Positions 22,190 to 39,270 of a stretch of 48,173 nucleotides of DNA are shown here, one piece after another. The stretch is from a virus. The first letter of the stretch is position 1. Every line of letters begins with the position of its first letter. The translations under genes and the position numbers were made by a program. The notes beneath the pieces were generated by a model. It was given only the letters and a program-made list of their open reading frames with translations. It made no database searches and had not been told where the DNA came from. The DNA lies in the IMG/VR virus record IMGVR_UViG_3300022307_000001, positions 1-48,173 of that record. The stretch is one strand, 5' to 3'.

Positions 22190-22480
22190 TTATACAGCAG
22201 ACACCCTCTTGAACCTATCCAGCAGCAAATTTAAAACTCTTGCAAATCCCTTGCGCCACTCAATTACTTGTCCATTTTCAACGACGGTGTATGAATCTAT
22301 TCTCCCGGAATCATATAATTCAAGCACCACCTTTCTATAGCCATAATCGAAGTCCTCCACGACTATCCTTCGTCTATACTCTGGCACTTTAATCGGGTAG
22401 TCGGGCTCAGGGTGTTCAAGCCGTATTCTTTCCTTTGCCGCAAGCATCCTTTCAGATATTTGTTTTGTGAAATGGGTCAT
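22190..22480 (-). CDS. hypothetical protein (last gene of the leftward early operon)
   Basis: 96-aa ORF. Confidence 0.6.
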   Translation of the reverse strand: MTHFTKQISERMLAAKERIRLEHPEPDYPIKVPEYRRRIVVEDFDYGYRKVVLELYDSGRIDSYTVVENGQVIEWRKGFARVLNLLLDRFKRVSAV

Positions 22481-22509
22481 AAAGCGTCTACGCTCCGTAT
22501 ATTCCTATG

Positions 22510-22716
22510 TTATGCTGCGTCCCATGCGGCAACAGCAAGGTCTTTCTCTTTGCCTTCATAAAGTATTTTATCGCCGTGAATCACCCTAAATACTCCGACA
22601 GGGTTAAGCCATAAGCGTAGTAGCCTCCCCCGAAAATTTTGGGATGCGAAAAGGTTCCATTGCTCCGCCATCCATGTGTCCAACACTTCTATATCTATTT
22701 CTAATTTATTACGCAT
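22510..22716 (-). CDS. hypothetical protein
   Basis: The ATG at 22716 lies inside the conserved GGATGATTGGTTATG element end. Confidence 0.55.
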   Translation of the reverse strand: MRNKLEIDIEVLDTWMAEQWNLFASQNFRGRLLRLWLNPVGVFRVIHGDKILYEGKEKDLAVAAWDAA

Positions 22717-22795
22717 AACCAATCATCCAGCGGACCCGGTAATCTTATGCGGCATTCGGCTGGTCCAGTAGCCGGGGCCGCTGATTAGGGTGTTA
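22717..22795 (-). repeat. stop-to-start intergenic palindromic element, copy d
   Basis: Minus strand reads TAACACCCTAATCA-GCGGCCCCGG...CCGGGTCCGC-TGGATGATTGGTTATG. The closing stem is CAGCGG/CCGCTG. Confidence 0.7.
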
Positions 22796-23125
22796 TGTAT
22801 TAAATATTTTATCCTCTTCGGCACACGCCAAGCTTGACACTTCACATAGTAGTTGCTGGGCAAATTCACACTTTTTATTCATCTCAATGGTCATACCGGG
22901 ATGTTCAATCAGAAAATCATCTATCATGCTGCATATTATATGGCTACGATCAATAATTTCATGAAAGTGACCACTGTTAAGATTTTCTCCATCGTCAAGT
23001 ACATAACCAGGCAATTCACGCTGAACACAAGGGCCTGTGCTTTTAAGACAGTTTGGTTCAGGGTTTACAACTTTATCGTTTTCAATTTTTACCATACTAG
23101 TTCTCCTTGTGTCAGGTGATCGCAA
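22793..23125 (-). CDS. hypothetical protein
   Basis: 110-aa ORF. Confidence 0.55.
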   Translation of the reverse strand: MRSPDTRRTSMVKIENDKVVNPEPNCLKSTGPCVQRELPGYVLDDGENLNSGHFHEIIDRSHIICSMIDDFLIEHPGMTIEMNKKCEFAQQLLCEVSSLACAEEDKIFNT

Positions 23126-23134
23126 CGTTATATT

Positions 23135-23320
23135 TCAAAGTAAGTTGAACAGCTCAACCATAATTGGGTATTTCTTTTTCAATACTGTTGGTGAGTACAT
23201 TCCTTTACTTGTTTCCATATCAAGTTCTATAAATGCTCTTTCAAGCTCATATTTTAATTGCTCGGCATTTGTGCCGGTTAATAGAATCTGTCTTGTTTTC
23301 TTCGGGCTTATTTCTATCAT
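23135..23320 (-). CDS. hypothetical protein
   Basis: 61-aa ORF. Confidence 0.5.
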   Translation of the reverse strand: MIEISPKKTRQILLTGTNAEQLKYELERAFIELDMETSKGMYSPTVLKKKYPIMVELFNLL

Positions 23321-23404
23321 GTATTATAACCATTTATCCACTTGACCGCATGGAGTTTGCCGCTTCCCCCGGTCTTAGGTGGGCGGCAAGTGATTTCGGT
23401 GTTA
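23321..23404 (-). repeat. stop-to-start intergenic palindromic element, copy a
   Basis: 23338-23395 matches 30652-30709 at 55 of 58 positions. Closing stem is CACTTG/CAAGTG. Ends are TTATAAC / GTTATAA. Confidence 0.75.
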
Positions 23405-23641
23405 TAATTCTTCGCTAGTGAGGTACGTTAAAGCTACTCTTTGTATTGGATTTTTCGGCATTAATTTAACTGTATAGCCACATTCACAGTTTTCCGCGTC
23501 TGCATTTATGTCTCTCGCTATCTCTGGCGGCACACTATCCATGTCATAGTCTATAAGTTCACACTTTCCAGCCTTTGATTGAAATTCTACCTTGGCCCCA
23601 CATTTAGGGCAATCTGCCCACACTCTATCAAACATTCCCAT
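23402..23641 (-). CDS. zinc-ribbon protein
   Basis: Start at 23641 (MGMFDRVW) after GGGAGGAAG. CPKCG...CECG. The upstream part of the track ORF is actually a repeat element. Confidence 0.55.
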   Translation of the reverse strand: MGMFDRVWADCPKCGAKVEFQSKAGKCELIDYDMDSVPPEIARDINADAENCECGYTVKLMPKNPIQRVALTYLTSEEL

Positions 23642-23747
23642 AACTTCCTCCCGTATGGAATTATAACCAAAAAAATTCACCAGACAGCGAGGACGCTTCC
23701 GGCATTTCCTGCACCAGCATAGGCGCTGCTGGTGATTGTCGGTGTTA
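23642..23747 (-). repeat. stop-to-start intergenic palindromic element, copy j
   Basis: GCATAACACCGACAATCACCAGCA...TGCTGGTG...CGCTGTCTGGTGAATTTTTTTGGTTATAA. Its 3' 26 nt are shared with copy i. Confidence 0.7.
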
Positions 23748-23969
23748 TGCTTCACCTGGTAATTTTGTTCTGTGGTATAAATTAGACATCCCTTCGGCCT
23801 GGCGTTTCGCTATTTCTTCGTTGCTCATCGCCCTCATTCCTGGTAAAGATTTACGTTGCATTTCTGCAATTTCTTCATCCGACATTGCTCTCATTGATTC
23901 ATTTTGAATTCTTATTATTTCCATTCTTCTTTCTTCATCCATAATTAGCCTCCAAAGCATAACAATCAA
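23745..23969 (-). CDS. hypothetical protein with an internal duplication
   Basis: 74 aa. MRAMSDEEIAEMQRK / MRAMSNEEIAKRQAE repeat. Confidence 0.5.
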   Translation of the reverse strand: MIVMLWRLIMDEERRMEIIRIQNESMRAMSDEEIAEMQRKSLPGMRAMSNEEIAKRQAEGMSNLYHRTKLPGEA

Positions 23970-24053
23970 ATTCAGTGGATGCCGAGAACGGTGGCGGCGC
24001 TACGCGGGTAATTCGGTAGCGGCACCACTGATTATCGGCGTTAGGTGGTGCTA
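23970..24053 (-). repeat. stop-to-start intergenic palindromic element, copy e
   Basis: TAGCACCACCTAACGCCGATAATCAGTGG...CCACTGAATTTGATTGTTATG. Closing stem is CAGTGG/CCACTG. Confidence 0.65.
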
Positions 24054-24209
24054 ATCTTCTTCAACGATTCTGGTATAATATTCTTCATGGTTAAGATTCA
24101 TGTTAGCCCCATCGTCGACTCTCCCGGCTTGCCTTTCCGGCATTGGCCCCATTCTTTTAACCACTTCCTCAGGTTCACCATATTTGACTATTTCGACGTA
24201 ATATTTCAT
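24051..24209 (-). CDS. hypothetical 52-aa protein (below the ORF-track cutoff)
   Basis: Hand translation gives MKYYVEIVKYGEPEEVVKRMGPMPERQAGRVDDGANMNLNHEEYYTRIVEED*. It fills the gap between two repeat elements. The antisense 60-aa track ORF looks spurious. Confidence 0.45.
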   Translation of the reverse strand: MKYYVEIVKYGEPEEVVKRMGPMPERQAGRVDDGANMNLNHEEYYTRIVEED

Positions 24210-24290
24210 AACAATCACTCAAACTGACCGCAAGATCGTCTCCGGCCCTACGGGGTCAGGTTCATAGGGCGGCAACTTAGTTTAGCGTTA
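24210..24290 (-). repeat. stop-to-start intergenic palindromic element, copy f
   Basis: GCATAACGCTAAACTAAGTTGCCGCCC...GCGGTCAGTTTGAGTGATTGTTATG. Confidence 0.6.
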
Positions 24291-24560
24291 TGCGTACGCC
24301 TCAATTTCCTCGGCGGTCACATAGGCCGCTTGTTTAGTCTTCGGCACCATCACAGACAATCTACCCTTGAAAGGCCCCGATTTTGCCTTGCGGAATTGCG
24401 CTCCGGTAACTCTCATTACCTGCCTACTGTCTCCTAGCCATCCGGCCTCGTATAGCCTAAAGTTTTCGGGTATTCCTCCCGGCAATTTAGCTATCTTGTT
24501 AAGGGCGATCTTTCCATATGTATATGTCGCGAAAATATCAGTAGTCATATCTGCTGCCAT
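24288..24560 (-). CDS. hypothetical protein
   Basis: 90-aa ORF. Confidence 0.55.
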   Translation of the reverse strand: MAADMTTDIFATYTYGKIALNKIAKLPGGIPENFRLYEAGWLGDSRQVMRVTGAQFRKAKSGPFKGRLSVMVPKTKQAAYVTAEEIEAYA

Positions 24561-24656
24561 AATTAAACCTCATAACCAAAAATTAAGCTGACTCGTTTTA
24601 CTCTGCGCTCCGTGTCAGCATTACGGCTCGCAGCTTATTCCGTTGTTATGCTACTA
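24561..24656 (-). repeat. stop-to-start intergenic palindromic element, copy g
   Basis: TAGTAGCATAACAACGGAATAAGCTG...CAGCTTAATTTTTGGTTATG. Closing stem is AAGCTG/CAGCTT. Here the GTTATG is not the start codon. Confidence 0.65.
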
Positions 24657-24920
24657 AGCTGGCTTAAAACCTATAGCCCTAGCCGCGTCCCTAACTTCTT
24701 TAAAGGTAAGTGTGGGGTGAACGTGATAATCTTCATTATACGAAAACCCTTCCTCTATCTCTAAAACGTCCATTAATTCCTTATCTAACACTTCCTCGTA
24801 ACAGGCTTGAACCAAGTTCCATATAGCCCTACTTTGTTCTTTGTCCAGGTTAAGTGGCATAACCAAATCATTCACGCAGACCGTTGCCTCATCCTTTGTC
24901 TGGTTCTCTTTATCAGTCAT
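24654..24920 (-). CDS. hypothetical protein sharing its N-terminal leader with 31131..31409
   Basis: 88 aa. MTDKENQTKDEATVCVNDLV compared with MTEKKQQTKDEATVCVNGLV. Confidence 0.55.
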   Translation of the reverse strand: MTDKENQTKDEATVCVNDLVMPLNLDKEQSRAIWNLVQACYEEVLDKELMDVLEIEEGFSYNEDYHVHPTLTFKEVRDAARAIGFKPA

Positions 24921-24977
24921 AATCTAGCTCCTTATTAGTTTCTGTTTGGTAGTTGCGGCTGGTGATGCAGGTTGTTA
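24858..24977 (-). repeat. 120-nt leader cassette (element variant with RBS and first 20 codons), copy 1
   Basis: Ungapped hand alignment to 31347-31466 gives 93 of 120 identities. It runs from the upstream stop codon through AAGGAGC-ATG to ..GTGAATGATTTGGTTATG. Confidence 0.75.
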
Positions 24978-25475
24978 CACATTCCTCAAAGCCCTACCCC
25001 TAATCTGCTCCATACTTTCTTCCTTGACCGGCCTGAAACAATCTTTTGTAGGCTTAAACCTAGCTTTTAACATACTGACATCTATACCGGGACAATCATC
25101 GTGCATATATCTTGCACAGTTATTGTTGCAGTTTACCGGCCTTGTTTCCTTTGTCACGCCCTCTTGTGGCTTTACTTTCTTGGCGACTACCTGCTTCTCA
25201 ACGACTGGCTCCCGTTTTTTTTGCCCCTTGTCGATCCTGTATCGGTGTTGGCGGCAATCTGCTGAGCAGTATTTAAATTTGGCCTTTTTACCGCAAACTG
25301 GGCACTTGGTATTCCTTCTTTTTATATACTCGTTGCCCCAAGCAACTATTTTGTCATTGTCGTTATCGAGCTTGTTTGCCATATGTCGCATTGTTGTTAT
25401 CTCACAACCGAAATAGGCTGCGGCTTGTGCCATTGTTTTCTTTTTGCCTTCTATTGTGATTTGTTTTCCTAACAT
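24975..25475 (-). CDS. putative DNA-binding protein (HTH plus Cys-rich zinc-finger region)
   Basis: 166 aa. KKTMAQAAAYFGCEITTMRHMANKL is HTH-like. CPVCG..CSADC and later Cys pairs. Confidence 0.5.
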   Translation of the reverse strand: MLGKQITIEGKKKTMAQAAAYFGCEITTMRHMANKLDNDNDKIVAWGNEYIKRRNTKCPVCGKKAKFKYCSADCRQHRYRIDKGQKKREPVVEKQVVAKKVKPQEGVTKETRPVNCNNNCARYMHDDCPGIDVSMLKARFKPTKDCFRPVKEESMEQIRGRALRNV

Positions 25476-25490
25476 TTTATCACCTCGTTA

Positions 25491-25787
25491 TTACAATTCA
25501 AATTCCATGTCGGTGTCTATGTTGGCTGTTATTCTGGCCCCATGAAGCGTTTCAAAATAACCAATCCAGAATGGAGATATCGTGCGCTCTCCTTCATCGG
25601 TCAATAGTGTCAATTCGTATCGCTTATCAAAGTCTGGGTGGTCTTTGCACTCTATGTAATGTTTTTTTATTCTCTTAAGATTTTCTTTAGCTTTTTCTAA
25701 GCTGGTAACAGGATTACATAAAGGCTCTGTTGATCTTTCTGAACCAAAGCTACTTCCAGTAGTATAGTCTATGTCAATGTCATACAT
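25491..25787 (-). CDS. hypothetical protein
   Basis: Start at 25787 (MYDIDIDY) after GAGGGGAG. The upstream track codons belong to a repeat element. Confidence 0.55.
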   Translation of the reverse strand: MYDIDIDYTTGSSFGSERSTEPLCNPVTSLEKAKENLKRIKKHYIECKDHPDFDKRYELTLLTDEGERTISPFWIGYFETLHGARITANIDTDMEFEL

Positions 25788-25918
25788 GGTATTTTCTCCC
25801 CTCGTTAAACAAAGCGGCAGACACACAGCGGCACATCAATACTCTGCGTATTGTCCACACCCGTAGGTGGATGCCCTGATTTGATATACTTGTCATGTCT
25901 GCCGCTTATCTCGTTTTA
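25788..25918 (-). repeat. stop-to-start intergenic palindromic element, copy h (large)
   Basis: Perfect 12-bp closing stem AAGCGGCAGACA/TGTCTGCCGCTT. GATAAGCGG...CCGCTTTGTTTAAC parallels copy k. Confidence 0.6.
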
Positions 25919-26308
25919 TACCTTGCTGGCAGAAAAAGGAATATCCTCGCCCATTGAGTCGCTTGCCTGGTGGCCGCCTTGCCTTTCCCCGGTGCTTTCC
26001 TTGGGAGAAAGAATTTTCATGGTGTTGACAATAATCTCTGTGGTGTATCGCTTGTTTCCGTCTTTATCTTCCCACTGGTTTGTTTTCATTTCGCCCTGGA
26101 CAAAAACCTTCTTGCCTTTACTCAAGTATTCCCCAATCACTTCCGCAAGCTTGCCGAATGACACACATCTGACAAATTCAGTTCCTTTGTTGTCGCCAAA
26201 GCCTACATCGACGCAAACGGTATATTTAGCTACTGCGTTTCCAGCCGCAGAATATCTAATTTCTGGATCAGCTGAAAGATTCCCTATTCCTGTAAATTGA
26301 TTAAACAT
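25916..26308 (-). CDS. ssb: single-stranded DNA-binding protein
   Basis: OB-fold N-terminus is NQFTGIGNLSADPEIRYSAAGNAVAKYTV...FVRCVSFGKLAE. Acidic C-terminal tip is DIPF. Confidence 0.85.
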   Translation of the reverse strand: MFNQFTGIGNLSADPEIRYSAAGNAVAKYTVCVDVGFGDNKGTEFVRCVSFGKLAEVIGEYLSKGKKVFVQGEMKTNQWEDKDGNKRYTTEIIVNTMKILSPKESTGERQGGHQASDSMGEDIPFSASKV

Positions 26309-26320
26309 TGTATTTCTCCT

Positions 26321-26578
26321 TTAGTCTTTTATTGGTGTTATCGCCATACAGACATGGCTTTGCTGTAATCCTCCGAAATCAGAGAGGATATAGTTTATGC
26401 GGTAGTCTGGTATGGTTAAGCGTACTGAAAAGCAATTATAATTATCATCTTCCAGCGGTATAAATTGTATCGTGTCGCCAACCTGAAAATCTCTATCGTT
26501 TTTCCTTACTTCAAAGGTCTTTATACCTTCCAATATGTGGATTAAATAACATTGCTTTATCTTTAAACAGTGTATCAT
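26321..26578 (-). CDS. ASCH / DUF3850-like (PUA-fold) protein
   Basis: HCLKIKQCYLIHILEGIKTFEVRKNDRDFQVGDTIQF matches the DUF3850 pattern H.LKi...yF..i..G.KtfEiRkNDRdf.vGD. Confidence 0.6.
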   Translation of the reverse strand: MIHCLKIKQCYLIHILEGIKTFEVRKNDRDFQVGDTIQFIPLEDDNYNCFSVRLTIPDYRINYILSDFGGLQQSHVCMAITPIKD

Positions 26579-26614
26579 ATCTACCCCCTTTCGTTTAGTT
26601 TTCTTGTTTAAATG

Positions 26615-27958
26615 CTACCTAACTGGTCTGTGCATGGTCATTTTGCTCTCAAACCTTGTAAGACCACCTTTCCATATTAAATCAACTGACCCTGTTGGCC
26701 CGTTTCTGTGTTTCCTTATCAATATTTCAGCTATGCCTTTAAGTGGATTATGCTCCGAATCATTATAAACCTCATCGCGGTAGACGAAAGCTACAACATC
26801 AGCGTCTTGCTCTATTGCTCCTGAGTCTCTTAAATCAGACAACAGTGGCCTTTTGTCGGTTCTGGACTCACAACCCCTGTTTAATTGAGAAAGTGCTATA
26901 ACGGGCACCTTTAGCTCTTTAGCCATAGCTTTAAGCTCTCTTGAGATAATGCTTGTCTCTTCTTCCTTGCTTCTTGCTTTGGTGTGGCTTAGTTGCAGGT
27001 AATCAATCCAGATTGCTTTTATGTCGTACTTTTCCTTTATTCTTCTCGCTCTGCTTCTGATGTCATAAGGGCTTAGCCCTGCCGAATCATCAATAAAAAT
27101 ACCCATATTAGCCAATATTCTACAAGCGGCACGGACTTGTTCAATTTCCTCTTTGTTCAACTTGCCGTTTCTGATCTTAAATGAGTCTATCTTTGAAATG
27201 GAAGAAATAGCTCTGAATACTAAAGACTCGTCGTTCATCTCCAAACTAAAGATTGCTTGGTTATTCCCTGCCTTTGCCGCATTTTCGATTATGTTCATTG
27301 CAAGGGCTGTCTTGCCCATGCTTGGCCTGCCGGCAACAATTATCAGGTCGCTTGGTTTTAGTCCAGTAAGAATAAAGTCTAAATCGTCGTAGCCGGTTTC
27401 CATGCCAAGCGCTTTGATCTCTCCACTTGCCAGCTTTTCTATTTGTGACATAACTGAACCGATAACCTCGCCAATATGCTTAAACCCTTCCGATTTACGC
27501 CTGACGGATGATTCATAAACAATCTTCTCAAGTTCTTCTGTCATCTCGCTTGGAGAGTCGCCGTTATCATTATAACATTTCTCGGTTATCTCTTGCGCCA
27601 TTGAAATAGCGGCTCTTAAATCTGCTTTGTGCTTTATTATCTTTGAGCCAGTTCTAACACCGGAAATTGATGGTATGCAATCAGACAAGAACGAAACATA
27701 TGCAGCCCCACCGCATAGACCAAGATTGCCGTGTGTTTCTAATTTATTGGTTACGCTTACGATGTCTATGTTGTCTCCTTCTTCATGGAGGGCCTTTACC
27801 GCTGCGAATATGCCCTGGTGTGCTGGTTTGTAAAAATCTAATACTTTTAAATGGCTAACAACATGAAAGGCACAGTCGTCATTCATTAAAGCAGATCCCA
27901 ATACCGCCTGCTCGTATTCAATATTTTGCGGCGGTAGCCTATGCGCTAAGTTTTGCAT
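26615..27958 (-). CDS. dnaB: replicative DNA helicase DnaB
   Basis: PPQNIEYEQAVLGSALM N-terminal domain. Walker A is GRPSMGKTALAMN. Walker B region is AIWIDYLQL. The start at 27958 follows AAGAGGAAT. The maximal ORF extends to 28018. Confidence 0.9.
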   Translation of the reverse strand: MQNLAHRLPPQNIEYEQAVLGSALMNDDCAFHVVSHLKVLDFYKPAHQGIFAAVKALHEEGDNIDIVSVTNKLETHGNLGLCGGAAYVSFLSDCIPSISGVRTGSKIIKHKADLRAAISMAQEITEKCYNDNGDSPSEMTEELEKIVYESSVRRKSEGFKHIGEVIGSVMSQIEKLASGEIKALGMETGYDDLDFILTGLKPSDLIIVAGRPSMGKTALAMNIIENAAKAGNNQAIFSLEMNDESLVFRAISSISKIDSFKIRNGKLNKEEIEQVRAACRILANMGIFIDDSAGLSPYDIRSRARRIKEKYDIKAIWIDYLQLSHTKARSKEEETSIISRELKAMAKELKVPVIALSQLNRGCESRTDKRPLLSDLRDSGAIEQDADVVAFVYRDEVYNDSEHNPLKGIAEILIRKHRNGPTGSVDLIWKGGLTRFESKMTMHRPVR

Positions 27959-28754
27959 ATAATTCCTCTTTTGTTTTATCGGCCCCGGATCTGCCGGATA
28001 TGTGAATAGTTTTTGCACCGTTCCCTTTCATCTTCATAAACAGCTGGTCATATTTTTCTCTTAGCTTTGAAGTTGATAAAATGTTTTGCATCCAAAAGGA
28101 ATCAGTTTGTGCAAACTTAATAACATTCTTAATCTCTTCTGGGTTTCTCCCGTCTAGCCTGATCATGTAGTCGATGATTTTTGCCCATCCTTGAACGTTA
28201 CAAACTTTGGCTTTTGAAGATGAATTGTTTTTAATAATCCAGTTTTTTAAATACTCTGCTAATCTGATTTCGATAGAATCAGATGAAAATGTTTTGACGT
28301 TGTTATCTTTTAATTCTTTTAACTTCTTTTGTAATTCTTTAATTGTTTCCAGTAATCGTTTCTCCTGCGTTTCTTCCGCGTTACTTTCCGCTGTGTCGAT
28401 AGATTGGTATGTGTCCCATTTTATTACATAAATAAATGTTCCATTGGCGTTACTTTCTGAACCTATCATTCCTTGCGACTCAAGCCAGTCAATTACGACC
28501 TTAATGGTCTTTTTGTTAGGTATCCTGTCTTTCCCCCACTCAAGCCACATGACTCCTTTTGCAATCAAATCATAACTGGTTATTAGCTGACCTGGATTAA
28601 TATGTATCCCAAACTTTCTAGGTGTGGGAAATACTTCCTTTTTCCATTTAGCTTTCAACAGAATCCATTTCCATACTCTCCCATAAACCGGTGGCATAAC
28701 CCATATATCGCTATCTAGTTCTCGCCTATATTGTTTTATGTAACCACGATCCAT
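27939..28754 (-). CDS. replication initiator / replisome organiser (DnaD-like winged helix)
   Basis: 271 aa directly upstream of dnaB. IPNKKTIKVVIDWLESQGMI looks like a wHTH, and the C-terminal domain is helical. Confidence 0.55.
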   Translation of the reverse strand: MDRGYIKQYRRELDSDIWVMPPVYGRVWKWILLKAKWKKEVFPTPRKFGIHINPGQLITSYDLIAKGVMWLEWGKDRIPNKKTIKVVIDWLESQGMIGSESNANGTFIYVIKWDTYQSIDTAESNAEETQEKRLLETIKELQKKLKELKDNNVKTFSSDSIEIRLAEYLKNWIIKNNSSSKAKVCNVQGWAKIIDYMIRLDGRNPEEIKNVIKFAQTDSFWMQNILSTSKLREKYDQLFMKMKGNGAKTIHISGRSGADKTKEELYAKLSA

Positions 28755-29323
28755 TATAGGCCTCTAGTATATCTTATCCACTTTTTAAGTTTTTGTACTC
28801 CTTCTTGGTAGGCGATAGAAAGCGTATCTCTTATTGATTCTAGGTCCTCTGCAGTCCTATACCACCCACTTTGCTCTGTGAAGGTGATACCAGTAGACAA
28901 ATCTATATCGTAAGTATATACAGAAATATCCTTGTTAAGATCCAATATCCAACAGACATCATTACTGTCGATTTCATTCCCAATTAATACCATTGACACT
29001 TTTAGTTTTACTCTGGACAACAACTTAGGTACTCCGTAAGCGTCTATAGACCTATTTATCGCTGCATTATATCTAGCAATTTGGCCTAATGCTGCATAGT
29101 TAATATTGTCTTTCTTTAGTTCAACAATAGTAATTTCGACCATATGACCAGACGGATCACTATCAGCATCACACACAAGAAGGTCTACTACCCCGTACCC
29201 TGGTAAAGCAACTTGGCGCATAGGCTTACCTGATATAAAAAGATCACCATTTTCGACATACCCACCTGTTTCAAGCTCATTAAATAAATAGTCTTCCAGC
29301 TCCACTTCTAGTATTTCAGCCAT
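28754..29323 (-). CDS. PD-(D/E)XK nuclease (NucS/DUF91/DUF4263-like)
   Basis: GYGVVDLLVCDADSDPSGHMVEITIVELKKDNINYAALGQIARY fits G.vDLl..d..g...v.vElK.....a.gQ..rY. Confidence 0.6.
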   Translation of the reverse strand: MAEILEVELEDYLFNELETGGYVENGDLFISGKPMRQVALPGYGVVDLLVCDADSDPSGHMVEITIVELKKDNINYAALGQIARYNAAINRSIDAYGVPKLLSRVKLKVSMVLIGNEIDSNDVCWILDLNKDISVYTYDIDLSTGITFTEQSGWYRTAEDLESIRDTLSIAYQEGVQKLKKWIRYTRGL

Positions 29324-29341
29324 TTACCTTCCTCCAAAACG

Positions 29342-29432
29342 CAAAAAGCAACTCGAAAGGTTCGCTTGACTGTGGACTAAGAACCACAACCGGACTAAAT
29401 TAACCGGCTTCAAACCCTTCGAGCTGCTTTTT
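29342..29432 (-). ncRNA. Y-shaped structured RNA / atypical terminator in the 5' region of the nuclease gene
   Basis: On the minus strand a 20-bp closing helix, AAAAAGCAGCTCGAAGGGTT / AACCTTTCGAGTTGCTTTTT, has two G-U pairs that would be A-C mismatches on the other strand. It encloses two hairpins (AGCCGG..CCGGTT and TGTGG..CCACA) and is followed by GCGTTTTGG. Confidence 0.5.
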
Positions 29433-29528
29433 ATTTTCTGAATCATATTTTGCCTTAGTTTTTTTAGAATTACATCGGGTGTGTCAAGTCCGATAAACTA
29501 CATTATCATATCAATTTTGTTTGTGCAA

Positions 29529-29717
29529 CTATTTCATATCCTGGTTGACAGTTTTTGCATTGTCCATAATGAGCCACCTTACAAGGTTTACCAAATCCCT
29601 TTTGTCGTGCCTCTCGCCAACAAGTTTTAACGCCATTACATCGGCTGCATACCTGTCCGGGTCTTCGCATCTCATCGGGTGGCTTGCCTTAATTTCTTCT
29701 TCATAGGTAAATTGCAT
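29529..29717 (-). CDS. hypothetical protein
   Basis: 62-aa ORF with AGGAGAAG RBS. Confidence 0.55.
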   Translation of the reverse strand: MQFTYEEEIKASHPMRCEDPDRYAADVMALKLVGERHDKRDLVNLVRWLIMDNAKTVNQDMK

Positions 29718-29726
29718 AATCTTCTC

Positions 29727-30035
29727 CTATTTATCATATTTTATACCGTGCTTTTCCTCAAGTATTTCAAGGAACCTTTGCTCAGTGTAAAAGTTCTTTT
29801 CCCACTCTTCCTGGCCGTCATGTATAGCTACACCAAAGCCGCCATCTTTGTGATGACCAGGGCATATCGGCAATACTATTTTGTGGTTTCTCTGCCCTAT
29901 CCCTAGCCCATCTCTGACGTGATGGATAATAGCTGGCGTTTCAACTCCGAGAAATTCATGGCATACGATACAGCCTATGGCAGCTACTTTGTTCATGTGC
30001 CTTTTTTCTGCGGAGGTTGCTTTAGCCATGTTCAA
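29727..30035 (-). CDS. Ref-like HNH nuclease (recombination enhancement function family)
   Basis: AEKRHMNKVAAIGCIVCH...IIHHVRDGLGIGQRNHKIVLPICPGHHKDGGFGVAIHDG matches the Ref/HNHc_6 pattern. The ATG at 30029 is the likely start. Confidence 0.6.
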   Translation of the reverse strand: MNMAKATSAEKRHMNKVAAIGCIVCHEFLGVETPAIIHHVRDGLGIGQRNHKIVLPICPGHHKDGGFGVAIHDGQEEWEKNFYTEQRFLEILEEKHGIKYDK

Positions 30036-30181
30036 GTAATTTCTTACCTTTTAGGCGTATTGGTGTGGTTTTGCGGTATTCTTTAGCCATAGGTGCTATG
30101 TTTGTGCTAATATCAGGGCGAATGTGCCTGTTTTTGTCTTTAATATCTAATATCAGGTCGTTTAGCCTTGCTAATCAATGG

Positions 30182-30403
30182 TTATACGGCTGCCAATTTC
30201 CTTATAGCCGGCGTAACTCCTATTGAATTACTAAATCCCTGCATAACGGGGACACCAAACTGGTGCGCATGTTCCACAGCTTCGATACGGGTTTTAAAAG
30301 TATCTATGTGGTCGTTATTAAATTCTTTTACATGCCCGTAAACTTCCCATATTGGATTTTCTTCTGACCCTCTGTTGACAAAAGTCATTAAACAATATTT
30401 CAT
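30182..30403 (-). CDS. hypothetical protein
   Basis: Start at 30403 (MKYCLMTF) after AAGAGGAAA. The upstream stop and this ATG are embedded in GCGTAAC...TTGTTATG. Confidence 0.5.
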   Translation of the reverse strand: MKYCLMTFVNRGSEENPIWEVYGHVKEFNNDHIDTFKTRIEAVEHAHQFGVPVMQGFSNSIGVTPAIRKLAAV

Positions 30404-30422
30404 AACAATTTCCTCTTGGTGG

Positions 30423-30641
30423 TTACGCACCCTTAATCTCGACACCGAGGCACAAATCTTTGTCACTGTACCCGATGTCATCAAATTCAAGGTGTGTGTA
30501 TTCAGTCTGATAAGGGTATGGGTAAGCTAATTCTTTCAGTCTTTCTGGAGGCAACGCCGTTCTTATCCGCAATTCGATGTTAAAATCGTCATCAAGACCT
30601 TTGGTCAATCTTCTAAAATCACCGAGCGTTTTAATTTGCAT
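30423..30641 (-). CDS. hypothetical protein
   Basis: The ATG at 30641 lies within GGATGATTGGTTATG. Confidence 0.5.
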   Translation of the reverse strand: MQIKTLGDFRRLTKGLDDDFNIELRIRTALPPERLKELAYPYPYQTEYTHLEFDDIGYSDKDLCLGVEIKGA

Positions 30642-30718
30642 AACCAATCATCCACTTGACCGCATGAAGTCAGCCGCTTCCCCCGGTCTTAGGTGGGCGG
30701 CAAGTGATTAGGGTGTTA
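30642..30718 (-). repeat. stop-to-start intergenic palindromic element, copy b
   Basis: TAACACCCTAATCACTTGCCGC...GCGGTCAAGTGGATGATTGGTTATG. Near-identical to copy a. Confidence 0.75.
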
Positions 30719-31030
30719 TCTTCCCAACAATTGGCATATCTCAAACTCGATTTGGTCTAGCTTTGTTTTGGCAAGTTCCAGCAATAAGTTAGGCACTGCG
30801 ACACATCCGGCCAGCCCGTTGATGTAGATTTCCTTCAAGTTCGTGCTGTCGTCAATTTTACCTGATTGGCCGGTAAATATCATGCGGCCAGCGTTGCGCT
30901 TTAGAAACAATATATCTTCTATAGCATTTGTAACTTCGGCCCTAGCTTTGATAAGGGAATTAATTTTATTTGCTTTAGTGATATGTTCATCAGCCTTCAC
31001 CTTTAATAATTTTATGTTCGTATCGTCCAT
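30716..31030 (-). CDS. hypothetical coiled-coil protein
   Basis: Start at 31030 (MDDTNIKLL) after GGAGGTAG. Confidence 0.5.
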   Translation of the reverse strand: MDDTNIKLLKVKADEHITKANKINSLIKARAEVTNAIEDILFLKRNAGRMIFTGQSGKIDDSTNLKEIYINGLAGCVAVPNLLLELAKTKLDQIEFEICQLLGR

Positions 31031-31133
31031 AACTACCTCCGTTAATTTCAAGATAACCAAGTTAATCAAGCGGATGTAATTACCGCCCGTTTGTTTCTGG
31101 CACGCTTTACACGCACCGCTTATTACAGCGTTA
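31031..31133 (-). repeat. stop-to-start intergenic palindromic element, copy k
   Basis: GCTAACGCTGTAATAAGCGG...CCGCTTGATTAACTTGGTTATC. Closing stem is AAGCGG/CCGCTT. Confidence 0.6.
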
Positions 31134-31409
31134 GCTAGGTGGGAGAAAAAGGTTGTAGCCATCGCTAACCAGATGATTAAATCTTTGTTTCTGTATTGAC
31201 CTCACTGTATTTCTGAAAACCAGATCGTTGTTTTTTGCCATGTCATCAAGAGTGTCGATGTCATCGAGATAGCCCCAAAGCCAACCAACCATATTTCTCA
31301 ACTGATCAACGTCTACAATATCTTTGAGTTTTTTGCCAAAATTATCGCTAACCAAGCCATTCACGCAGACCGTGGCCTCGTCTTTTGTCTGTTGTTTCTT
31401 CTCAGTCAT
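31131..31409 (-). CDS. hypothetical protein sharing its N-terminal leader with 24654..24920
   Basis: 92-aa ORF. See the leader cassette features. Confidence 0.55.
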   Translation of the reverse strand: MTEKKQQTKDEATVCVNGLVSDNFGKKLKDIVDVDQLRNMVGWLWGYLDDIDTLDDMAKNNDLVFRNTVRSIQKQRFNHLVSDGYNLFLPPS

Positions 31410-31468
31410 TGTCTTGCTCCTTGTTAATTGTTATTTGGTAGTTGCGGCCGGTGATGCAGGCGTTATGC
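31347..31468 (-). repeat. 120-nt leader cassette, copy 2
   Basis: Pairs with 24858-24977. It begins GGCATAACGCCTGCATCACCGGCCGCAACTACC. Confidence 0.75.
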
Positions 31469-31669
31469 CTCCGGTAATGATAGCATATACATTGAATAAA
31501 TTAGTGGCCCTAGCACAAGATTAGCAAGAGCTACAAATGTCGCTAATGTCTGATATTTTTGCAGGCCAATAAGTTCTGGAAAGAGCCACATAGAAACAGC
31601 GCAAAGAAAGAAGATTCCGCAAACAACTATGTCTGTTAATCTCCTAAAAATATATTTCAAATAAGGCAT
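31463..31669 (-). CDS. small membrane protein (two predicted TM helices)
   Basis: Start at 31669 (MPYLKYIF). Hydrophobic runs are VVCGIFFLCAVSMWLF and LATFVALANLVLGPLIYSMYML. Confidence 0.5.
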   Translation of the reverse strand: MPYLKYIFRRLTDIVVCGIFFLCAVSMWLFPELIGLQKYQTLATFVALANLVLGPLIYSMYMLSLPEA

Positions 31670-31749
31670 AACAATAAATCCACTTGACCAGGTTGTGCCT
31701 TGGGTGCCGGTGCTGGTCATTCACTGGCTGGCAAGTGATTAGGGTGTTA
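31670..31749 (-). repeat. stop-to-start intergenic palindromic element, copy c
   Basis: TAACACCCTAATCACTTGCC...GGTCAAGTGGATTTATTGTTATG. Confidence 0.7.
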
Positions 31750-31932
31750 TATTCTATTAACAAGTATCTCAAATACAGACAGGCTTTGGTCTATTCTGGC
31801 CACCAGCTTTCCTTCTTCTGTGTAGTAATTTGCAAATCTCCCCGCACCCAAATCATCTGTACATTTTGCTTTGTGGTTATTAATTGCTCTGTTAAATTTC
31901 TTTTCACTCGTTTGCTCAAAATGACTATCCAT
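31747..31932 (-). CDS. hypothetical protein
   Basis: 61-aa ORF after GGGAGGTAG. Confidence 0.5.
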   Translation of the reverse strand: MDSHFEQTSEKKFNRAINNHKAKCTDDLGAGRFANYYTEEGKLVARIDQSLSVFEILVNRI

Positions 31933-32035
31933 TATCTACCTCCCGTAAGGTAATATAACCAGGCGTTTCAGCCGAGTCGGCAGGCTTGTTCTGTTTTTCT
32001 TCATGTTAGTAGGCTCCCTGCTGAACTTGTTGTTA
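31933..32035 (-). repeat. stop-to-start intergenic palindromic element, copy l
   Basis: GATAACAACAAGTTCAGC...GCTGAAACGCCTGGTTATATT. Closing stem is TTCAGC/GCTGAA. Confidence 0.55.
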
Positions 32036-32251
32036 TCTGTACAAATCAACATAGTCGCCAAATTCGGCATCGAAAACAGCTATCAGGTTTTCATAGCCTC
32101 CGCTGGTCATTCGCTTGTTTATATCTTCCGTATCTTTGCCAAGTTGACGGCTAAGTTTTGCGGCAATACCAAGCAAGCAAAAAGCATTACCTTGGGGTCC
32201 GTTCAGATCTACTTCCATCTTGCCAGTTCTTTTCTTTGTCTTAATAGCCAT
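32033..32251 (-). CDS. hypothetical protein
   Basis: Start at 32251 (MAIKTKKRTG) after GGAGGAGAGAG. Confidence 0.55.
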   Translation of the reverse strand: MAIKTKKRTGKMEVDLNGPQGNAFCLLGIAAKLSRQLGKDTEDINKRMTSGGYENLIAVFDAEFGDYVDLYR

Positions 32252-32322
32252 TGCTCTCTCCTCCAAATAATAAATCAGATAACCAAAAAATTCACCAGAC
32301 AGCGTGAACATTGGCGGTGTTA
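32252..32322 (-). repeat. stop-to-start intergenic element, copy i (minimal, terminator-like)
   Basis: TAACACCGCCAATGTTCACGCTGTCTGGTGAATTTTTTGGTTATC. TTCAC/GTGAA hairpin plus a T-run. Confidence 0.6.
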
Positions 32323-32445
32323 CTTCCCCACCTGTTCAATAATTAACAAATTAACCAGTCCATTCATGGTTAGGCCCATCTTCTTAGCTTCGTTCCTTAG
32401 CTTATCTTTTCGTTCTTTTGGCATCTTAATTAGTAATTCTTCCAA
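32320..32445 (-). CDS. 41-aa ribbon-helix-helix regulator candidate (first gene of the leftward early operon)
   Basis: Hand translation gives (TTG)LEELLIKMPKERKDKLRNEAKKMGLTMNGLVNLLIIEQVGK*. GGAGG lies 6 nt before the TTG. The RHH-like pattern is R..L..eA...G.s.n.Lv..li. Confidence 0.45.
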   Translation of the reverse strand: MEELLIKMPKERKDKLRNEAKKMGLTMNGLVNLLIIEQVGK

Positions 32446-32471: not shown

Positions 32472-32499
32472 ATTTTACCACCTGTGTTTATAAAGTCAA
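32472..32499 (-). promoter_or_regulatory. sigma70-like promoter, leftward early operon
   Basis: Minus strand has TTGACT (32499-32494), 16-nt spacer, TAAAAT (32477-32472). Confidence 0.6.
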
Positions 32500-32547: not shown

Positions 32548-32575
32548 TTGACACGTTATTTCCCTGTGGTAAGAT
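32548..32575 (+). promoter_or_regulatory. sigma70-like promoter, rightward recombination operon
   Basis: TTGACA (32548-32553), 16-nt spacer, TAAGAT (32570-32575). Confidence 0.6.
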
Positions 32576-36056: not shown

Positions 36057-36212
36057 ATGAAAATACACAACCCAGACGATTGCCAACTCACAGTACCATA
36101 TGGCAAGTCAGAAATAAGAATACCACCACACACAACCGCCACAGTTATTGAAGTACCATTGGGCAAGCTGATGGGGATTTGTGTTAAATTCGAACAGGAG
36201 ATAAAGAAATGA
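36057..36212 (+). CDS. hypothetical 51-aa protein (below the track cutoff)
   Basis: MKIHNPDDCQLTVPYGKSEIRIPPHTTATVIEVPLGKLMGICVKFEQEIKK*. ATGA overlap with erf. Confidence 0.4.
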   Translation: MKIHNPDDCQLTVPYGKSEIRIPPHTTATVIEVPLGKLMGICVKFEQEIKK

Positions 36213-36865
36213 GCGAATCAGGATTAGGTGTATACAAAGCAATCTCAACCGTCCAAGGAGAACTTGCCAAACGAGGCATAAGCAAGGACCAGCAGAACAA
36301 AATGCAGGGCTTCAAATACAGAGGCATTGACGATGTTTATGCAGCTCTGTGCCCGTTGCTGGCGTCTAATGGCCTTTGCATACTGCCAAAAATGGTATCT
36401 AAAACAGTTGTTGAGAGAACAAACGCCAAAGGAACAGCGTTGTTTTATACAACGGTTGAAGTAGATTTTGACATAGTTAGCTCAGAAGATGGTAGCCGTC
36501 ACACCGTGAGCAGTTATGGGGAGGCAATGGACAGCGGAGATAAGAGTGCTGGTAAGGCGATGAGCTATGCTTATAAAGCAATGGCCTTTATGGTTTTTGC
36601 AATCCCCACCGAGGGAGACAACGACCCAGATGCCAATGTTCATACCGTTATGTCAAATAAAGAACCTTCCAAACCGGCACCATTATCCCCAGCCGTAAGG
36701 GAAAGCGTCGATAAATACGTTGCCCAGATTGCCAAACTTGAGACCCTGGCGGAAGTTGAGGCATGGTTAAAGAAAAACGAGCCAAACTTTTCTGCCGCCC
36801 CGGTCGCTGCAATCAATGAGATTATGACAGAATACGAGAACGCAAAGAAAGCTTACTCAAAATAA
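36209..36865 (+). CDS. erf: ERF-family single-strand annealing protein
   Basis: VYKAISTVQGELAKRGISKDQQNKMQGFKYRGIDDVYAALCPLLASNGL...DSGDKSAGKAMSYAYKAMAFMVFAIPTEGDNDPD matches the P22 Erf family pattern. Confidence 0.8.
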   Translation: MSESGLGVYKAISTVQGELAKRGISKDQQNKMQGFKYRGIDDVYAALCPLLASNGLCILPKMVSKTVVERTNAKGTALFYTTVEVDFDIVSSEDGSRHTVSSYGEAMDSGDKSAGKAMSYAYKAMAFMVFAIPTEGDNDPDANVHTVMSNKEPSKPAPLSPAVRESVDKYVAQIAKLETLAEVEAWLKKNEPNFSAAPVAAINEIMTEYENAKKAYSK

Positions 36866-38971: not shown

Positions 38972-39036
38972 GTTTATAACGCTTTTAATAAGCGGCCACA
39001 ACGGCCAAATAACACTAACCAAAGGAGTAAATTAGA

Positions 39037-39270
39037 ATGAAGAACGTGACTAAACTCGGATACTTGGCAATGGTCGGCTTGATTTTATTGTTATCTGCCT
39101 GCTCTCAGGATATTGGCGAAAAAGATCCTTGCTCGTATTGCGGTGGTGGGATATTTGCCCACAGAACTAACCACGGAGGGATGCTGGCACACTACACAAC
39201 AGACTTCCAAACTAGAGATGGTAAAAAATATCATCCTTGGTGTGTAAAATTATTTGACTCTGAGAATTAA
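39037..39270 (+). CDS. lipoprotein (possible superinfection-exclusion or moron function)
   Basis: Signal peptide plus lipobox LLLSAC at residues 18-22. Cys/His-rich mature part is CSYCGGG..H..H..WC. Confidence 0.65.
   Translation: MKNVTKLGYLAMVGLILLLSACSQDIGEKDPCSYCGGGIFAHRTNHGGMLAHYTTDFQTRDGKKYHPWCVKLFDSEN

Follow-up and report, generated by a model that had tools for sequence, protein, structure and literature searches.

Elements resembling integron attC sites, predicted to recombine, separate the small genes of a phage early operon

What fills the joints between the small genes of the leftward early operon in this phage DNA, and could these joints allow the genes to be exchanged? The 48,173-nt stretch analyzed here (the window) carries on its minus strand an array of about 19 small open reading frames (ORFs) of 41 to 166 aa (22190..32445), none of which gave a Pfam match reaching the curated cutoff. 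The best sigma-70-like promoter for the operon (32472..32499, minus strand; TTGACT, 16 nt, TAAAAT, preceded by TG) stands ahead of the first ORF (41 aa) and has 10 of 12 consensus matches plus the TG extension in a consensus scan; its divergent partner on the plus strand is at 32548-32575. The original prediction had put a family of structured elements at the small-ORF boundaries on the minus strand, and this placement was correct. Measured from the R' box to the R'' box, the 13 well-formed elements are 82 to 133 nt long; with one internally deleted remnant and several half-sites, they extend from 22.7 to 32.3 kb. They occupy exactly the non-coding joints between genes, with one small ORF between each two consecutive sites, and all elements in the operon are oriented alike on the minus (transcribed, coding) strand. 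The array is broken at about 25.9-30.0 kb by a site-free block that contains a Ref-like nuclease gene (29727-30035, within the operon) and replication genes (DnaD-like loader, DnaB, and SSB).

The elements share one fold. From the outside in, an R-box helix (yATAAC/GTTAT) is followed by an unpaired central spacer, 3 bp, an extrahelical G or A, 6 bp (or 3+3 bp with a third bulge), an extrahelical T, a GC-rich apical stem, and a variable terminal loop. In an alignment of 10 copies, standard pairs filled 90.6% of helix cells, compared with 27-38% when the partners were slid. Nine pairs had changed on both sides in a compensatory manner under the refined two-bulge structure, and the observed covariation score was reached by 0 of 500 shuffles. 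Column pair 16:76 was U:A in 10/10 copies, and the R-box triplets AAC and GTT were invariant, being kept even where they are not codons (sites e, g, a, j, k, and l). These data confirmed the covariation of the predicted "closing helix," although this helix is better described as 3 bp, a bulged base, 6 bp, and a bulged T. Parsing in the common register placed both bulges of nine two-bulge copies (c, j, e, h, g, and k and likewise a, b, and d) in the 3' arm, separated by 6 bp and at 8-10 and 15-17 nt from the R'' box. The complementary end boxes, with stop and start codons inside them, also proved to be real.

By published definition, integron attC sites measure 57-142 nt and carry two extrahelical bases, typically G and T, on the R''-L'' arm; these bases are separated by 6 bp and lie some 8-9 and 15-16 nt from the R box. 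The spacer is unpaired, the apical stem GC-rich, and the terminal structure variable (PMC2727003; PMC7439510). The fold on the coding strand of the window is the published bottom-strand fold of these sites. The bottom strand of attC(ereA2), taken from published oligonucleotides, reads GCATAAC-GCGCT-GAT-CACCGG-CGG...CCG-T-CCGGTG-G-ATT-GGCAG-GTTATGC, and site d has the same layout. The R boxes of site a are the same as those of the Vibrio cholerae repeat VCR2/1 (oligonucleotide sequences). The spacers in the window slightly exceed in length those of the mobile-integron sites used for comparison. A covariance model built from window copies only (R1) detected the class 1 integron site attC(ereA2) (36.2 bits, E=3.6e-6), the IntI1-validated phage site TJE1_attC2 (37.2 bits), PH101_attC1, PH101_attC2, and two more PH101 sites, all in the bottom-strand orientation. 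Reciprocally, a second model (R2), for which only seven published attC bottom strands were used, each of them assayed with IntI1, found ten of the elements as its top 10 matches across the whole window, all on the minus strand (35.7-22.5 bits). R2 also detected 10 sites in a related locus, L132, and in 91 other related loci, totaling 1.29 Mb, it gave only 3 matches with E<5. The family is strongly enriched in the window. The parses and this cross-detection back the predicted attC-like layout of R box, spacer, L box, and variable loop with promoterless mini-ORFs.

Judged from sequence, the elements are probably attC-type sites, together forming much of the leftward early operon, and recombination between them is predicted. 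Because no integrase is encoded, such a cluster would be a CALIN (an attC cluster lacking an integrase), and since the hairpin repeats are built like integron attC sites, the accessory genes between them look like swappable cassettes. Phage attC clusters are a known kind, first reported in 2023 in virulent phages that carry 2-4 sites each and no integrase; of six phage attC sites tested, five recombined with IntI1 (PMC9892861). Compared with those clusters, the array in the window is large and has its bottom-strand-like fold on the coding strand.

Individual sites fit the common fold to different degrees (all positions on the minus strand). Upstream of the site-free block, the remnant i2 (32277..32325; R' AAGTAAC, R'' GTTATCT; R1 14.7 bits) has lost its 5' stem arm and loop and matches j exactly over its 3' half, as the original prediction of a common i/j 3' end had indicated. 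Site l (31953..32038; 86 nt, AGATAAC...GTTATAT; R1 47.7 bits; R2 25.0 bits, E=0.0018) is the weakest of the well-formed copies. Site c (31666..31752; 87 nt, ATATAAC...GTTATGC; R2 29.8 bits) parses with 9/9 pairs and bulged G and T, and k (31051..31136; 86 nt, AGCTAAC...GTTATCT; R2 33.6 bits, E=1.7e-5) also with 9/9. Between these two, the long site m (31346..31468; 123 nt; R2 14.7 bits) has a degenerate R'' box (GTTAGCG), three bulges (A, C, and T) spaced 3+3 bp, and a variable loop containing a ribosome-binding site and ATGACTGA. Site b (30638..30721; 84 nt, AGATAAC...GTTATGC; R2 24.1 bits) is followed by half-sites or R-box-only junctions at about 30428-30401 and 30187.

Downstream of the block, the long site f (24857..24980; 124 nt) is of the three-bulge type, and its loop holds a ribosome-binding site and ATGACTGA, in frame with the R'' box GTTATG. 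Site g (24570..24651; 82 nt, GCATAAC...GTTATGA) scored 29.0 bits with R2. The best R2 match was site h (24206..24293; 88 nt, GCATAAC...GTTATGA; 35.7 bits, E=5.5e-6), which parses with 9/9 pairs, as do e (23957..24046; 90 nt, ACCTAAC...GTTATGC; 31.2 bits), whose R' box matches RYYYAAC exactly, and j (23661..23750; 90 nt, GCATAAC...GTTATAA; 22.5 bits), with bulged A and T. The remaining well-formed copies are a (23324..23407; 84 nt, TTATAAC...GTTATAA; R2 26.0 bits), the long three-bulge site o (23001..23133; 133 nt), with a ribosome-binding site and ATG in its loop, and d (22713..22798; 86 nt, ACATAAC...GTTATGC; R2 33.4 bits, E=1.9e-5). A further R-box-only junction is a solitary R' box, GCATAAC, at 22509..22515, without a partner arm, which gives a 68-aa ORF its stop codon.

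In a class 1 integron the bottom strand is non-coding, and the same holds for phage TJE1, whereas the bottom-strand-like fold of the window lies on the coding strand, as in phage PH101. Because the polarity is reversed, cassettes exchanged with an ordinary integron would sit antisense to its promoter. For the same reason, in 11 of 14 sites the A of the predicted A|C crossover is also the last base of the upstream TAA stop codon, and the predicted crossover comes exactly behind the stop; at site g, the upstream stop is a TAG lying 8 nt ahead of the predicted crossover. TAA ends 16 of 19 array ORFs, and for 14 of these the context is TAAC. Among the 43 genes outside the array, 22 end with TAA and 2 have ATAAC.

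Since the folding strand is also the mRNA, the hairpins will fold in the transcript as well. By pairing the next start codon with the stop codon upstream, they may, as a likely side effect, couple the translation of neighboring genes. Could action in the early polycistronic mRNA be their main function and the attC likeness incidental? The hairpins would then serve in nuclease processing or stabilization (compare the RNase III sites between the early genes of phage T7), as weak terminators, or as translational couplers, in which a ribosome terminating at the in-box UAA would melt the R-box helix and free the paired start codon (CAUAAC:GUUAUG). Consistent with such roles, it is the transcribed sense strand that folds, every copy in this one operon has the same orientation, the paired boxes contain stop and start codons, and T-runs come after some elements (j, g, and i2). 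The ORFs after b, c, d, and h begin with the ATG of the R'' box GTTATG and have weak ribosome-binding sites, and the long copies expose a ribosome-binding site and ATG in the loop, from which translation crosses the 3' arm. However, the majority of downstream genes carry a strong ribosome-binding site of their own past the element, the site-free replication block indicates that the operon can do without such elements between genes, and the elements gave no Rfam family match and no terminator-like call. Nor does an mRNA role explain the AAC/GTT triplets held invariant in the non-codon cases, the placement of two bulges on a single arm at attC distances and 6 bp from each other, or the reciprocal detection with literature attC sites. 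We therefore consider it an unlikely primary function; the translational-coupling hairpins of the original prediction are possible as a secondary effect that leaves the bulge geometry unexplained.

Comparison with related loci pointed to cassette-like behavior. Gene content varies between relatives: the element family is common to the window and L132, and only 2 of the approximately 19 small ORFs are. Elements flank a 65-aa "PGEA" ORF in the window, in L132, and in another locus, L198, and its neighbors differ. Within the window, copies a and b, predicted to be nearly identical, share 91% identity over 80 nt although they lie 7.3 kb apart with unrelated flanks, and m and f share 82% over 112 nt; these related copies adjoin unrelated ORFs. 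Counting against the attC reading, no significant attC match lies close to homologues of one cassette ORF elsewhere, the only match (15 bits, E=0.58) being beside one homologue.

Such shuffling might instead use short conserved linker homologies, as in the PeSL cassettes of T4-type phages, with no part for a site-specific recombinase. The phage does encode an Erf annealing protein (36209-36865) as well as the Ref-like RecA-dependent nuclease in the operon, which could shuffle modules homologously. Because the elements lie exactly in the non-coding joints, a crossover inside one would leave both genes intact, and some elements are chimeric or only halves (i2, L132:6080-6150, and the one downstream of PGEA in L198). 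This process depends on sequence identity and has no need of a fold, whereas compensatory changes in the stems have lowered the identity between copies and kept the structure, and the conserved bulges and R boxes indicate recognition of structure. The suggested PeSL likeness also failed in that the consensus scan found no promoter-like site within any element, and promoter-like sites in the region were not above shuffled sequence. We regard linker homology as decidedly improbable. Miniature transposable elements (MITEs, like Correia or ERIC elements) spread through the operon would account for terminal inverted repeats (ATAAC/GTTAT), a length of 80-130 nt, multiple copies, and the 91% identical pair. 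But no copy shows a visible target-site duplication, a transposase is absent, most copies are highly diverged with covarying stems, and all have a single orientation and a position exactly at ORF ends. In addition, a search of viral contigs found neither the 34-nt a/b core nor the a/b/c/d-subfamily pattern, and the latter was also absent from 185,579 species genomes. This origin is extremely improbable.

For attC-type sites, we infer that recombination occurs in vivo and that it is catalyzed by a tyrosine recombinase of the integron-integrase type, which the host would supply, as the phage encodes none. This enzyme would bind the folded strand and cross over directly after the TAA stop codon of the upstream gene. 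Through recombination of two such sites, units of one attC and one ORF would be excised, inserted, or reordered, so that accessory early genes could be shuffled within the phage and between co-infecting relatives. Besides the reversed polarity and the longer spacers, several observations count against the attC reading. No integrase or other recombinase was detectable in the phage, and neither recombination junctions nor excised circles nor site-precise presence/absence polymorphisms were observed. In about half of the copies, the first bulge is A or C instead of G; fold z-scores are modest; and the predicted probability of the R-box-paired single-strand fold is 0.04-0.88, versus 0.92-0.96 for compact mobile-integron sites. 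Overall, the original interpretation was partly supported.

Two further structures were found outside the runs of sites. Hairpin n (25800..25919, minus strand; ATAAAAC...GTTTAAC; z = -2.8) is a doubtful member of the family: its stem is long, perfect, and bulge-less, and neither R1 nor R2 matched it in the window scans. The other is a candidate long attC-like site outside the operon (38974..39096, plus strand; TTATAAC...GTTATCT; R2 21.6 bits, E=0.012; R1 12.5 bits), so the statement that the other operons hold nothing comparable must be qualified; a scan with the family model found no further copy in the window. The original prediction had missed this candidate, along with the two bulged bases, the coding-strand polarity, and the report of attC sites in virulent phages (PMC9892861). 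In this candidate, too, the coding strand carries the bottom-strand-like fold. Enclosed within the site are the start and the ribosome-binding site of a 77-aa ORF whose N terminus has a signal-peptide-like hydrophobic stretch with a cysteine at its end.

Elements that start with yATAAC and end with GTTAT(G) were present at most small-ORF boundaries of the leftward early operon when the minus strand was read against a listing of start codons, as the original prediction had held. Well-formed sites are 82 to 133 nt long; the minimal copy in the related phage locus L132 measures 58 nt, and remnant i2 measures 49 nt. TAAC and GTTAT were invariant in all 10 copies of an alignment of the window elements. 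The covariation that had been proposed was also borne out: in the first-pass structure of these 10 copies, 91.9% of alignment cells were paired, compared with 26 to 41% in slid controls, and eight pairs carried compensatory changes. Copies a and b are 91% identical despite a separation of 7.3 kb, and i2 and j have 3′ ends in common, both as predicted; copies m and f show 82% identity over 112 nt.

Every copy was re-parsed, and its pairs were re-counted, after the attC literature had been consulted (PMC2727003, PMC7439510). The refined fold of the coding strand consists of an R-box helix, an internal loop, 3 bp, a bulged G or A, 6 bp, a bulged T, a GC-rich apical helix, and a variable loop. The internal loop, or central spacer, has 4 to 6 nt per side in every well-formed copy. 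In the nine two-bulge copies, both bulges are on the 3′ arm, separated by 6 bp, at 8 to 10 and 15 to 17 nt from the R″ box, and the second bulge is T throughout. The first bulge is G in sites a, b, c, d, h, and k and A in sites j, e, g, f, m, and o. A third bulge divides the 6 bp into 3 + 3 in f, m, and o, and site l is without clear bulges. The apical P3 helix (CCGC/GCGG, CAGCG/CGCTG, etc.) covaries, and the loop above it ranges in length from ~4 nt (L132) to ~90 nt (long window sites). Initially, a conserved U·G wobble was taken as evidence for an RNA fold; this argument was withdrawn: in the refined structure, column pair 16:76 is U:A in 10 of 10 copies, and the adjacent pair 15:77 is present in 10 of 10, with two compensatory changes. 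The T thus pairs with the next A, leaving G or A as a single bulged base. Thermodynamic stability was likewise dropped as evidence, since z-scores were only −0.1 to −3.1; the case therefore rests on covariation and architecture, not on energy.

Integron attC sites are 57 to 142 nt long and carry R′ and R″ boxes of consensus RYYYAAC/GTTRRRY, in which AAC is essential (Bouvier et al. 2009, PMC2727003; Nivina et al. 2020, PMC7439510). They have an unpaired central spacer, a GC-rich apical stem, a variable terminal structure, and two or three extrahelical bases, typically G and T, which are located 6 bp apart on the R″-L″ arm at ~8 to 9 and 15 to 16 nt from the R box (PMC2727003, PMC7439510). The window elements agree with attC sites in length, boxes, spacer, extrahelical bases, and apical stem. 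The AAC/GTT box triplets, the spacer, the 3-bp L-box segment, the first extrahelical base, and the extrahelical T are all shared, and both kinds of element lie at the ends of single promoterless ORFs. Most copies fit the 7-nt box consensus at six of seven positions, and copy e fits at all seven. The first bulge is typically G in integron attC sites but is often A in the window. The boxes of attC(ereA2) (GCATAAC/GTTATGC) and of the Vibrio cholerae repeat VCR2/1 (TTATAAC/GTTATAA) occur verbatim in the window, and VCR and oxa2 have a third bulge with a 3 + 3 bp split, as in f, m, and o. Real attC bottom strands were rebuilt from published oligonucleotides and read ATCTAAC-GCTTGA-ATT-AAGCCG-CGCCGC-GAA-GCGGCG-T-CGGCTT-G-AAT-GAATT-GTTAGAC for aadA7 and GCATAAC-GCGCT-GAT-CACCGG-CGG...CCG-T-CCGGTG-G-ATT-GGCAG-GTTATGC for ereA2. 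Window site d reads ACATAAC-ACCCT-AAT-CAGCGG-...-T-CCGCTG-G-ATG-ATTG-GTTATGC, and its layout coincides with those of ereA2 and aadA7 feature by feature.

Two covariance models were used: R1, built from window copies only, and R2, built from seven published bottom strands (aadA7, ereA2, oxa2, two sites of phage TJE1, and two of phage PH101), all assayed with IntI1. R1 found attC(ereA2) in a class 1 integron (36.2 bits, E = 3.6e-6) and TJE1_attC2 in TJE1 (37.2 bits, versus 16 bits on the opposite strand). In a PH101 locus (NC_029094, 71919 to 79976), R1 found at least four attC-like sites on the coding strand (locus positions 1990 to 2046, 2593 to 2669, 3392 to 3448, and 4001 to 4058), among them PH101_attC1, PH101_attC2, and two further sites. 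The matches to attC(ereA2), TJE1, and PH101 were all in the bottom-strand orientation. When R2 was run on the whole window without filters, ten of the elements made up the best 10 hits, each of them a minus-strand match (35.7 to 22.5 bits, E = 5.5e-6 to 7e-3); site m scored 14.7 bits. The background was three hits at E < 5 in 1.29 Mb from 91 other related phage loci, compared with ten hits in the 10 kb of the window operon and ten in L132. Based on the R1 and R2 tests and this background, the window elements were filed as attC-type sites.

The expectation that nothing comparable lies outside the operon held for one model but not for the other. R1 gave no further significant copy on either strand of the window, indicating that the family is confined to the leftward operon in one orientation. 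R2, however, gave a candidate long attC-like site (21.6 bits) on the plus strand at 38974 to 39096, outside the operon. A 77-aa ORF (39037 to 39270) has its ribosome-binding site and start within this candidate, and its product has a signal-peptide-like hydrophobic N terminus ending in cysteine. Just before the candidate, at ~38888 to 38970, is a long GC-rich inverted repeat, CCCCGCCACC...GGTGGCGGGG.

The polarity of the array differs from that of an integron. In the class 1 integron locus and in TJE1, cassette genes lie opposite the attC bottom strand. In the window, L132, PH101, and a second related locus, L122, the bottom-strand-like fold is on the coding strand; the integron-type arrangement, with a noncoding bottom strand and the bulged arm by the upstream stop codon, was not found in the window. 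Predicted A|C cleavage would consequently fall directly after the R′-box TAA. In 11 of 14 sites, the upstream ORF ends in frame at this TAA. Because the R′-box TAA serves as the upstream stop, array ORFs are rich in TAA stop codons (16 of 19, compared with 22 of 43 elsewhere). The predicted mobile unit would be an attC site together with the ORF that follows it, the ATG of which often comes from the R″ box. In sedentary chromosomal arrays, the bottom strand is mostly on the leading-strand template, which limits excision (PMC5371416). The coding strand of the phage operon is G-rich, which suggests that the operon is co-oriented with replication; if so, the phage arrangement would favor folding, unlike that of sedentary arrays.

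Since the strand that folds also serves as mRNA, the elements are likely to have effects at the RNA level, and these may be selected as well. They would comprise stop-start pairing, occlusion of weak ribosome-binding sites, and, in long copies, loop-borne ribosome-binding sites with ATGACTGA. As the sole explanation of the elements, however, such effects would leave the attC-specific geometry unaccounted for. RNase III hairpins between the early genes of phage T7, as well as REP and ERIC hairpins, are similarly imperfect, contain internal loops, and lie between genes in polycistronic transcripts, but they are not known to have AAC/GTT end boxes, a fixed bulge pair, or a link to cassette-like turnover; the window elements have both the boxes and the bulge pair. 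The PeSL elements of T4-type phages, to which the elements had been likened, recur between genes on either side of small, variable early ORFs in a hyperplastic part of the genome, which is a setting much like that of the window. Each PeSL element has an early promoter with a terminator-like stem-loop after it, and the elements act via homologous recombination. The PeSL reading was not supported: a sigma-70 scan gave 28 sites in the region versus 30.2 expected, with none inside an element, and the conserved features of the window elements are structural and attC specific.

Several other candidates were rejected. No direct repeats flank the elements as would be expected of a MITE, only the pairs a/b and m/f are close, and all copies are co-oriented at ORF ends. 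There was no intrinsic terminator call on any element. Programmed translational bypass of the T4 gene 60 type was rejected because matching take-off and landing codons were lacking where examined.

The long sites (window 24920, 31409, and 23095; L198:1402, in a marine contig; and L132:7003) carry AAGGAG-type ribosome-binding sites within the variable loop. The string noted for the long copies is common to four of the five long-site loops, the exception being site o at 23095. In f, m, and o, the reading frame passes through the 3′ arm into the downstream ORF, and in the L198 long site there is a mini-ORF of 26 codons, ending in a TGA that overlaps the next ATG. The long-site loops look like a portable translation-initiation module or leader peptide. 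A separate 28-nt junction on the minus strand (30401 to 30428; GCGTAAC-CACCAAGAGGAAAT-TGTTATG) has R′-like and R″-like boxes with no stem between them and may represent what is left of a collapsed site.

The window is a complete phage genome that assembled as a circle, with bases 1 to 127 recurring at 48047 to 48173; its source contig is ENA ERZ27296442 k141_1341102 (48,187 bp). Megablast of the region against GenBank phages gave no match, and the genome has no close relative among them. The genome encodes an SU10-like portal and adaptor, a capsid protein, Erf, a DnaD-like helicase loader, DnaB, SSB, and a Ref-like nuclease; a 782-aa ORF on the minus strand (16877 to 19225), likely the large terminase, contains a Pfam Intein_splicing domain at residues 97 to 368. 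Two divergent sigma-70-like promoters lie at ~32.5 kb, from which the leftward minus-strand operon runs to ~22.2 kb. Pfam, PHROGs, and NCBIfam scans of all ORFs of at least 150 aa, and of most ORFs of more than 120 aa, revealed no tyrosine recombinase or integrase. Rfam 15 covariance models gave no match in the whole window up to E = 1, and a tRNA/tmRNA scan of the window found none. The intI, attI, and Pc of a complete integron are all absent from the window.

A CALIN is a same-strand group of two or more neighboring attC sites with no integrase in the vicinity. The window has 13 well-formed sites on one strand and no integrase; the sites form two blocks, at 22.7 to 25.0 kb and 30.6 to 32.0 kb, within which neighbors are no more than ~0.4 kb apart. 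Because no integrase is present, this array of attC-type sites is a CALIN. Like sedentary chromosomal arrays such as the Vibrio superintegron, it combines a lineage-specific, fairly homogeneous attC family with many co-oriented cassettes of unrelated ORFs, mostly without known families. It differs from sedentary arrays in lacking an integrase and attI, in being on a virus, in its far smaller size, and in its reversed ORF polarity.

According to Qi et al. 2023 (PMC9892861), CALINs are known in the virulent phages PH101 (H101, Pseudoalteromonas), TJE1 (Tetrasphaera), and P12002L (Polaribacter). That paper gives two to four predicted attC sites per phage cluster and reports recombination of PH101_attC1/2 and TJE1_attC1/2 by IntI1, only two of the PH101 sites having been assayed. 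No later report of phage attC clusters was found in the literature. As in the window, the PH101, TJE1, and P12002L CALINs have no detectable integrase, sites between small hypothetical ORFs, and ATAAC/GTTAT boxes. The PH101 CALIN also shares the reversed polarity, with the bottom strand as the coding strand, on which no remark was found in the parts of PMC9892861 that were consulted. In contrast with the two to four sites of the published phage CALINs, the window has 13 well-formed sites plus remnants, and these form most gene boundaries of the early operon. Unlike the published clusters, the window family is common to at least one distant relative, L132 (10 sites), and a stop codon coincides with the predicted crossover in most sites (11 of 14). 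The window case differs from those of Qi et al. 2023 in scale, in the role of the sites as operon boundaries, in conservation across a clade, and in the reversed polarity with a stop codon at the predicted crossover.

Retrieval of loader-protein relatives yielded 73 loci from viral contigs, 80 from metagenomes, and 7 from genomes. Among these ~160 loci, only L132 (IMGVR_UViG_3300022542_000228) has the same element family, and L122 has a related one. The L132 loader is 36% identical to that of the window, and its R2 hits lie between small ORFs, on the coding strand. The two phages have only 2 of ~19 small ORFs in common. A 65-aa "PGEA" ORF occurs in the window, in L132, and in the marine contigs L198 and L199, flanked by elements or half-elements but with differing neighbors. 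This pattern, together with the L132 comparison, is cassette-like turnover, with breakpoints placed no finer than within or at elements. The related but distinct family of L122 is marked by GCGCAAC and TGGTTGAAT motifs. At L122:12745-13415 (plus strand), between small ORFs 3′ of a primase-helicase gene, GCGCAAC occurs with TGGTTGAATnG and a bulged T; R2 scores for this family were 23.3 and 18.5 bits. An isolated strong R2 hit (36.4 bits) at L131:11100-11150 (plus strand; IMGVR_UViG_3300014656_000178) lies at the very end of the fetched locus, and an attC array may continue beyond it in this loader-related phage.

The seven genome loci with loader homologues were metagenome-assembled bins of assorted phyla, and no host was inferred from them. 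DnaB as a single query gave no relative in viral contigs. A degenerate element pattern gave at least 118 single hits in viral contigs, and the 100 that were re-scored with the model all looked chance-like. An exact 34-mer pattern scan of public collections found nothing, and a 24-base subfamily pattern gave no hits either in viral contigs or among the 185,579 species genomes scanned. Context look-up for homologues of one cassette ORF, in other phages and an Azonexus chromosome, gave no significant attC hit, and these contexts demonstrated no shared mobile cassette.

Our preferred reading is site-specific recombination: a host integron-type integrase would act on the folded coding strand and thereby shuffle single-ORF cassettes. 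This reading draws on the architecture and enrichment of the elements, on the model tests, on gene turnover, and on the reported recombination of PH101 and TJE1 attC sites by IntI1 (PMC9892861). Against it stand the lack of an enzyme in the phage, the reversed polarity, and predicted single-strand folding that is weaker than that of compact mobile-integron sites (P = 0.04 to 0.88 versus 0.92 to 0.96). We also entertain, though with considerable doubt, a wider proposal, in which the accessory early genes of an integrase-less, apparently lytic phage clade form a genuine integron-type cassette array of reversed polarity, and the clade uses the stress-induced integron integrase of its host. The recombinogenic fold would then lie on the coding strand, that is, the mRNA strand and probably also the lagging-strand template. 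Crossover would fall exactly after the TAA of each gene, phages would exchange early genes among themselves, and the hairpins would double as stop-to-start translational couplers in the transcript. Were this true, integron-style recombination would be a general viral route to building and diversifying operons, and phages would be a separate pool, or even the birthplace, of cassettes.

Integrons are the best-known bacterial system for gene capture and reshuffling, and the array bears on where integron cassettes originate and how they pass between lineages. It makes a much stronger case than the few phage attC sites first reported in 2023, in that attC-type sites mark the majority of the boundaries between accessory genes in a viral early operon and L132, which shares the site family, differs almost entirely in gene content. 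If a host integrase recombines the sites, the well-known plasticity of phage early regions would gain a concrete mechanism that can be tested, and genes would have a route from phage to phage and possibly between phages and chromosomal integrons. The bottom strand of ordinary integron arrays is noncoding, whereas the window is a natural array with the bottom strand as the coding strand; if recombined, it would be useful for examining how attC polarity interacts with transcription and replication. Should the sites prove not to be recombined, attC models can catch RNA-level hairpins in phage operons, and phage attC clusters call for caution.

Other features of the genome were noted in passing. 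The phage encodes both a Ref-like RecA-dependent nuclease (29727 to 30035, minus strand) and an Erf annealing protein (36209 to 36865, plus strand), which together could promote recombination between short repeats such as attC-like sites. Ahead of the nuclease gene, a site-less gap on the minus strand (30025 to 30180) contains the direct-repeat pairs CCTGATATTAG (twice) and ATGGCTAAAG (twice), which might serve as operators, as an origin, or as a second promoter region. A terminator-like structured leader, consisting of a long hairpin followed by TTTTTGNGTTTTGGAGG, lies at 29330 to 29500 (minus strand), 5′ of the 189-aa gene that precedes the helicase loader. This leader recurs in relatives (L198:1790-1965 and L132:9830-10000). 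In L198, a perfect TTGACA-17-TATAAT promoter precedes the hairpin leader, which suggests a small RNA or an attenuator.
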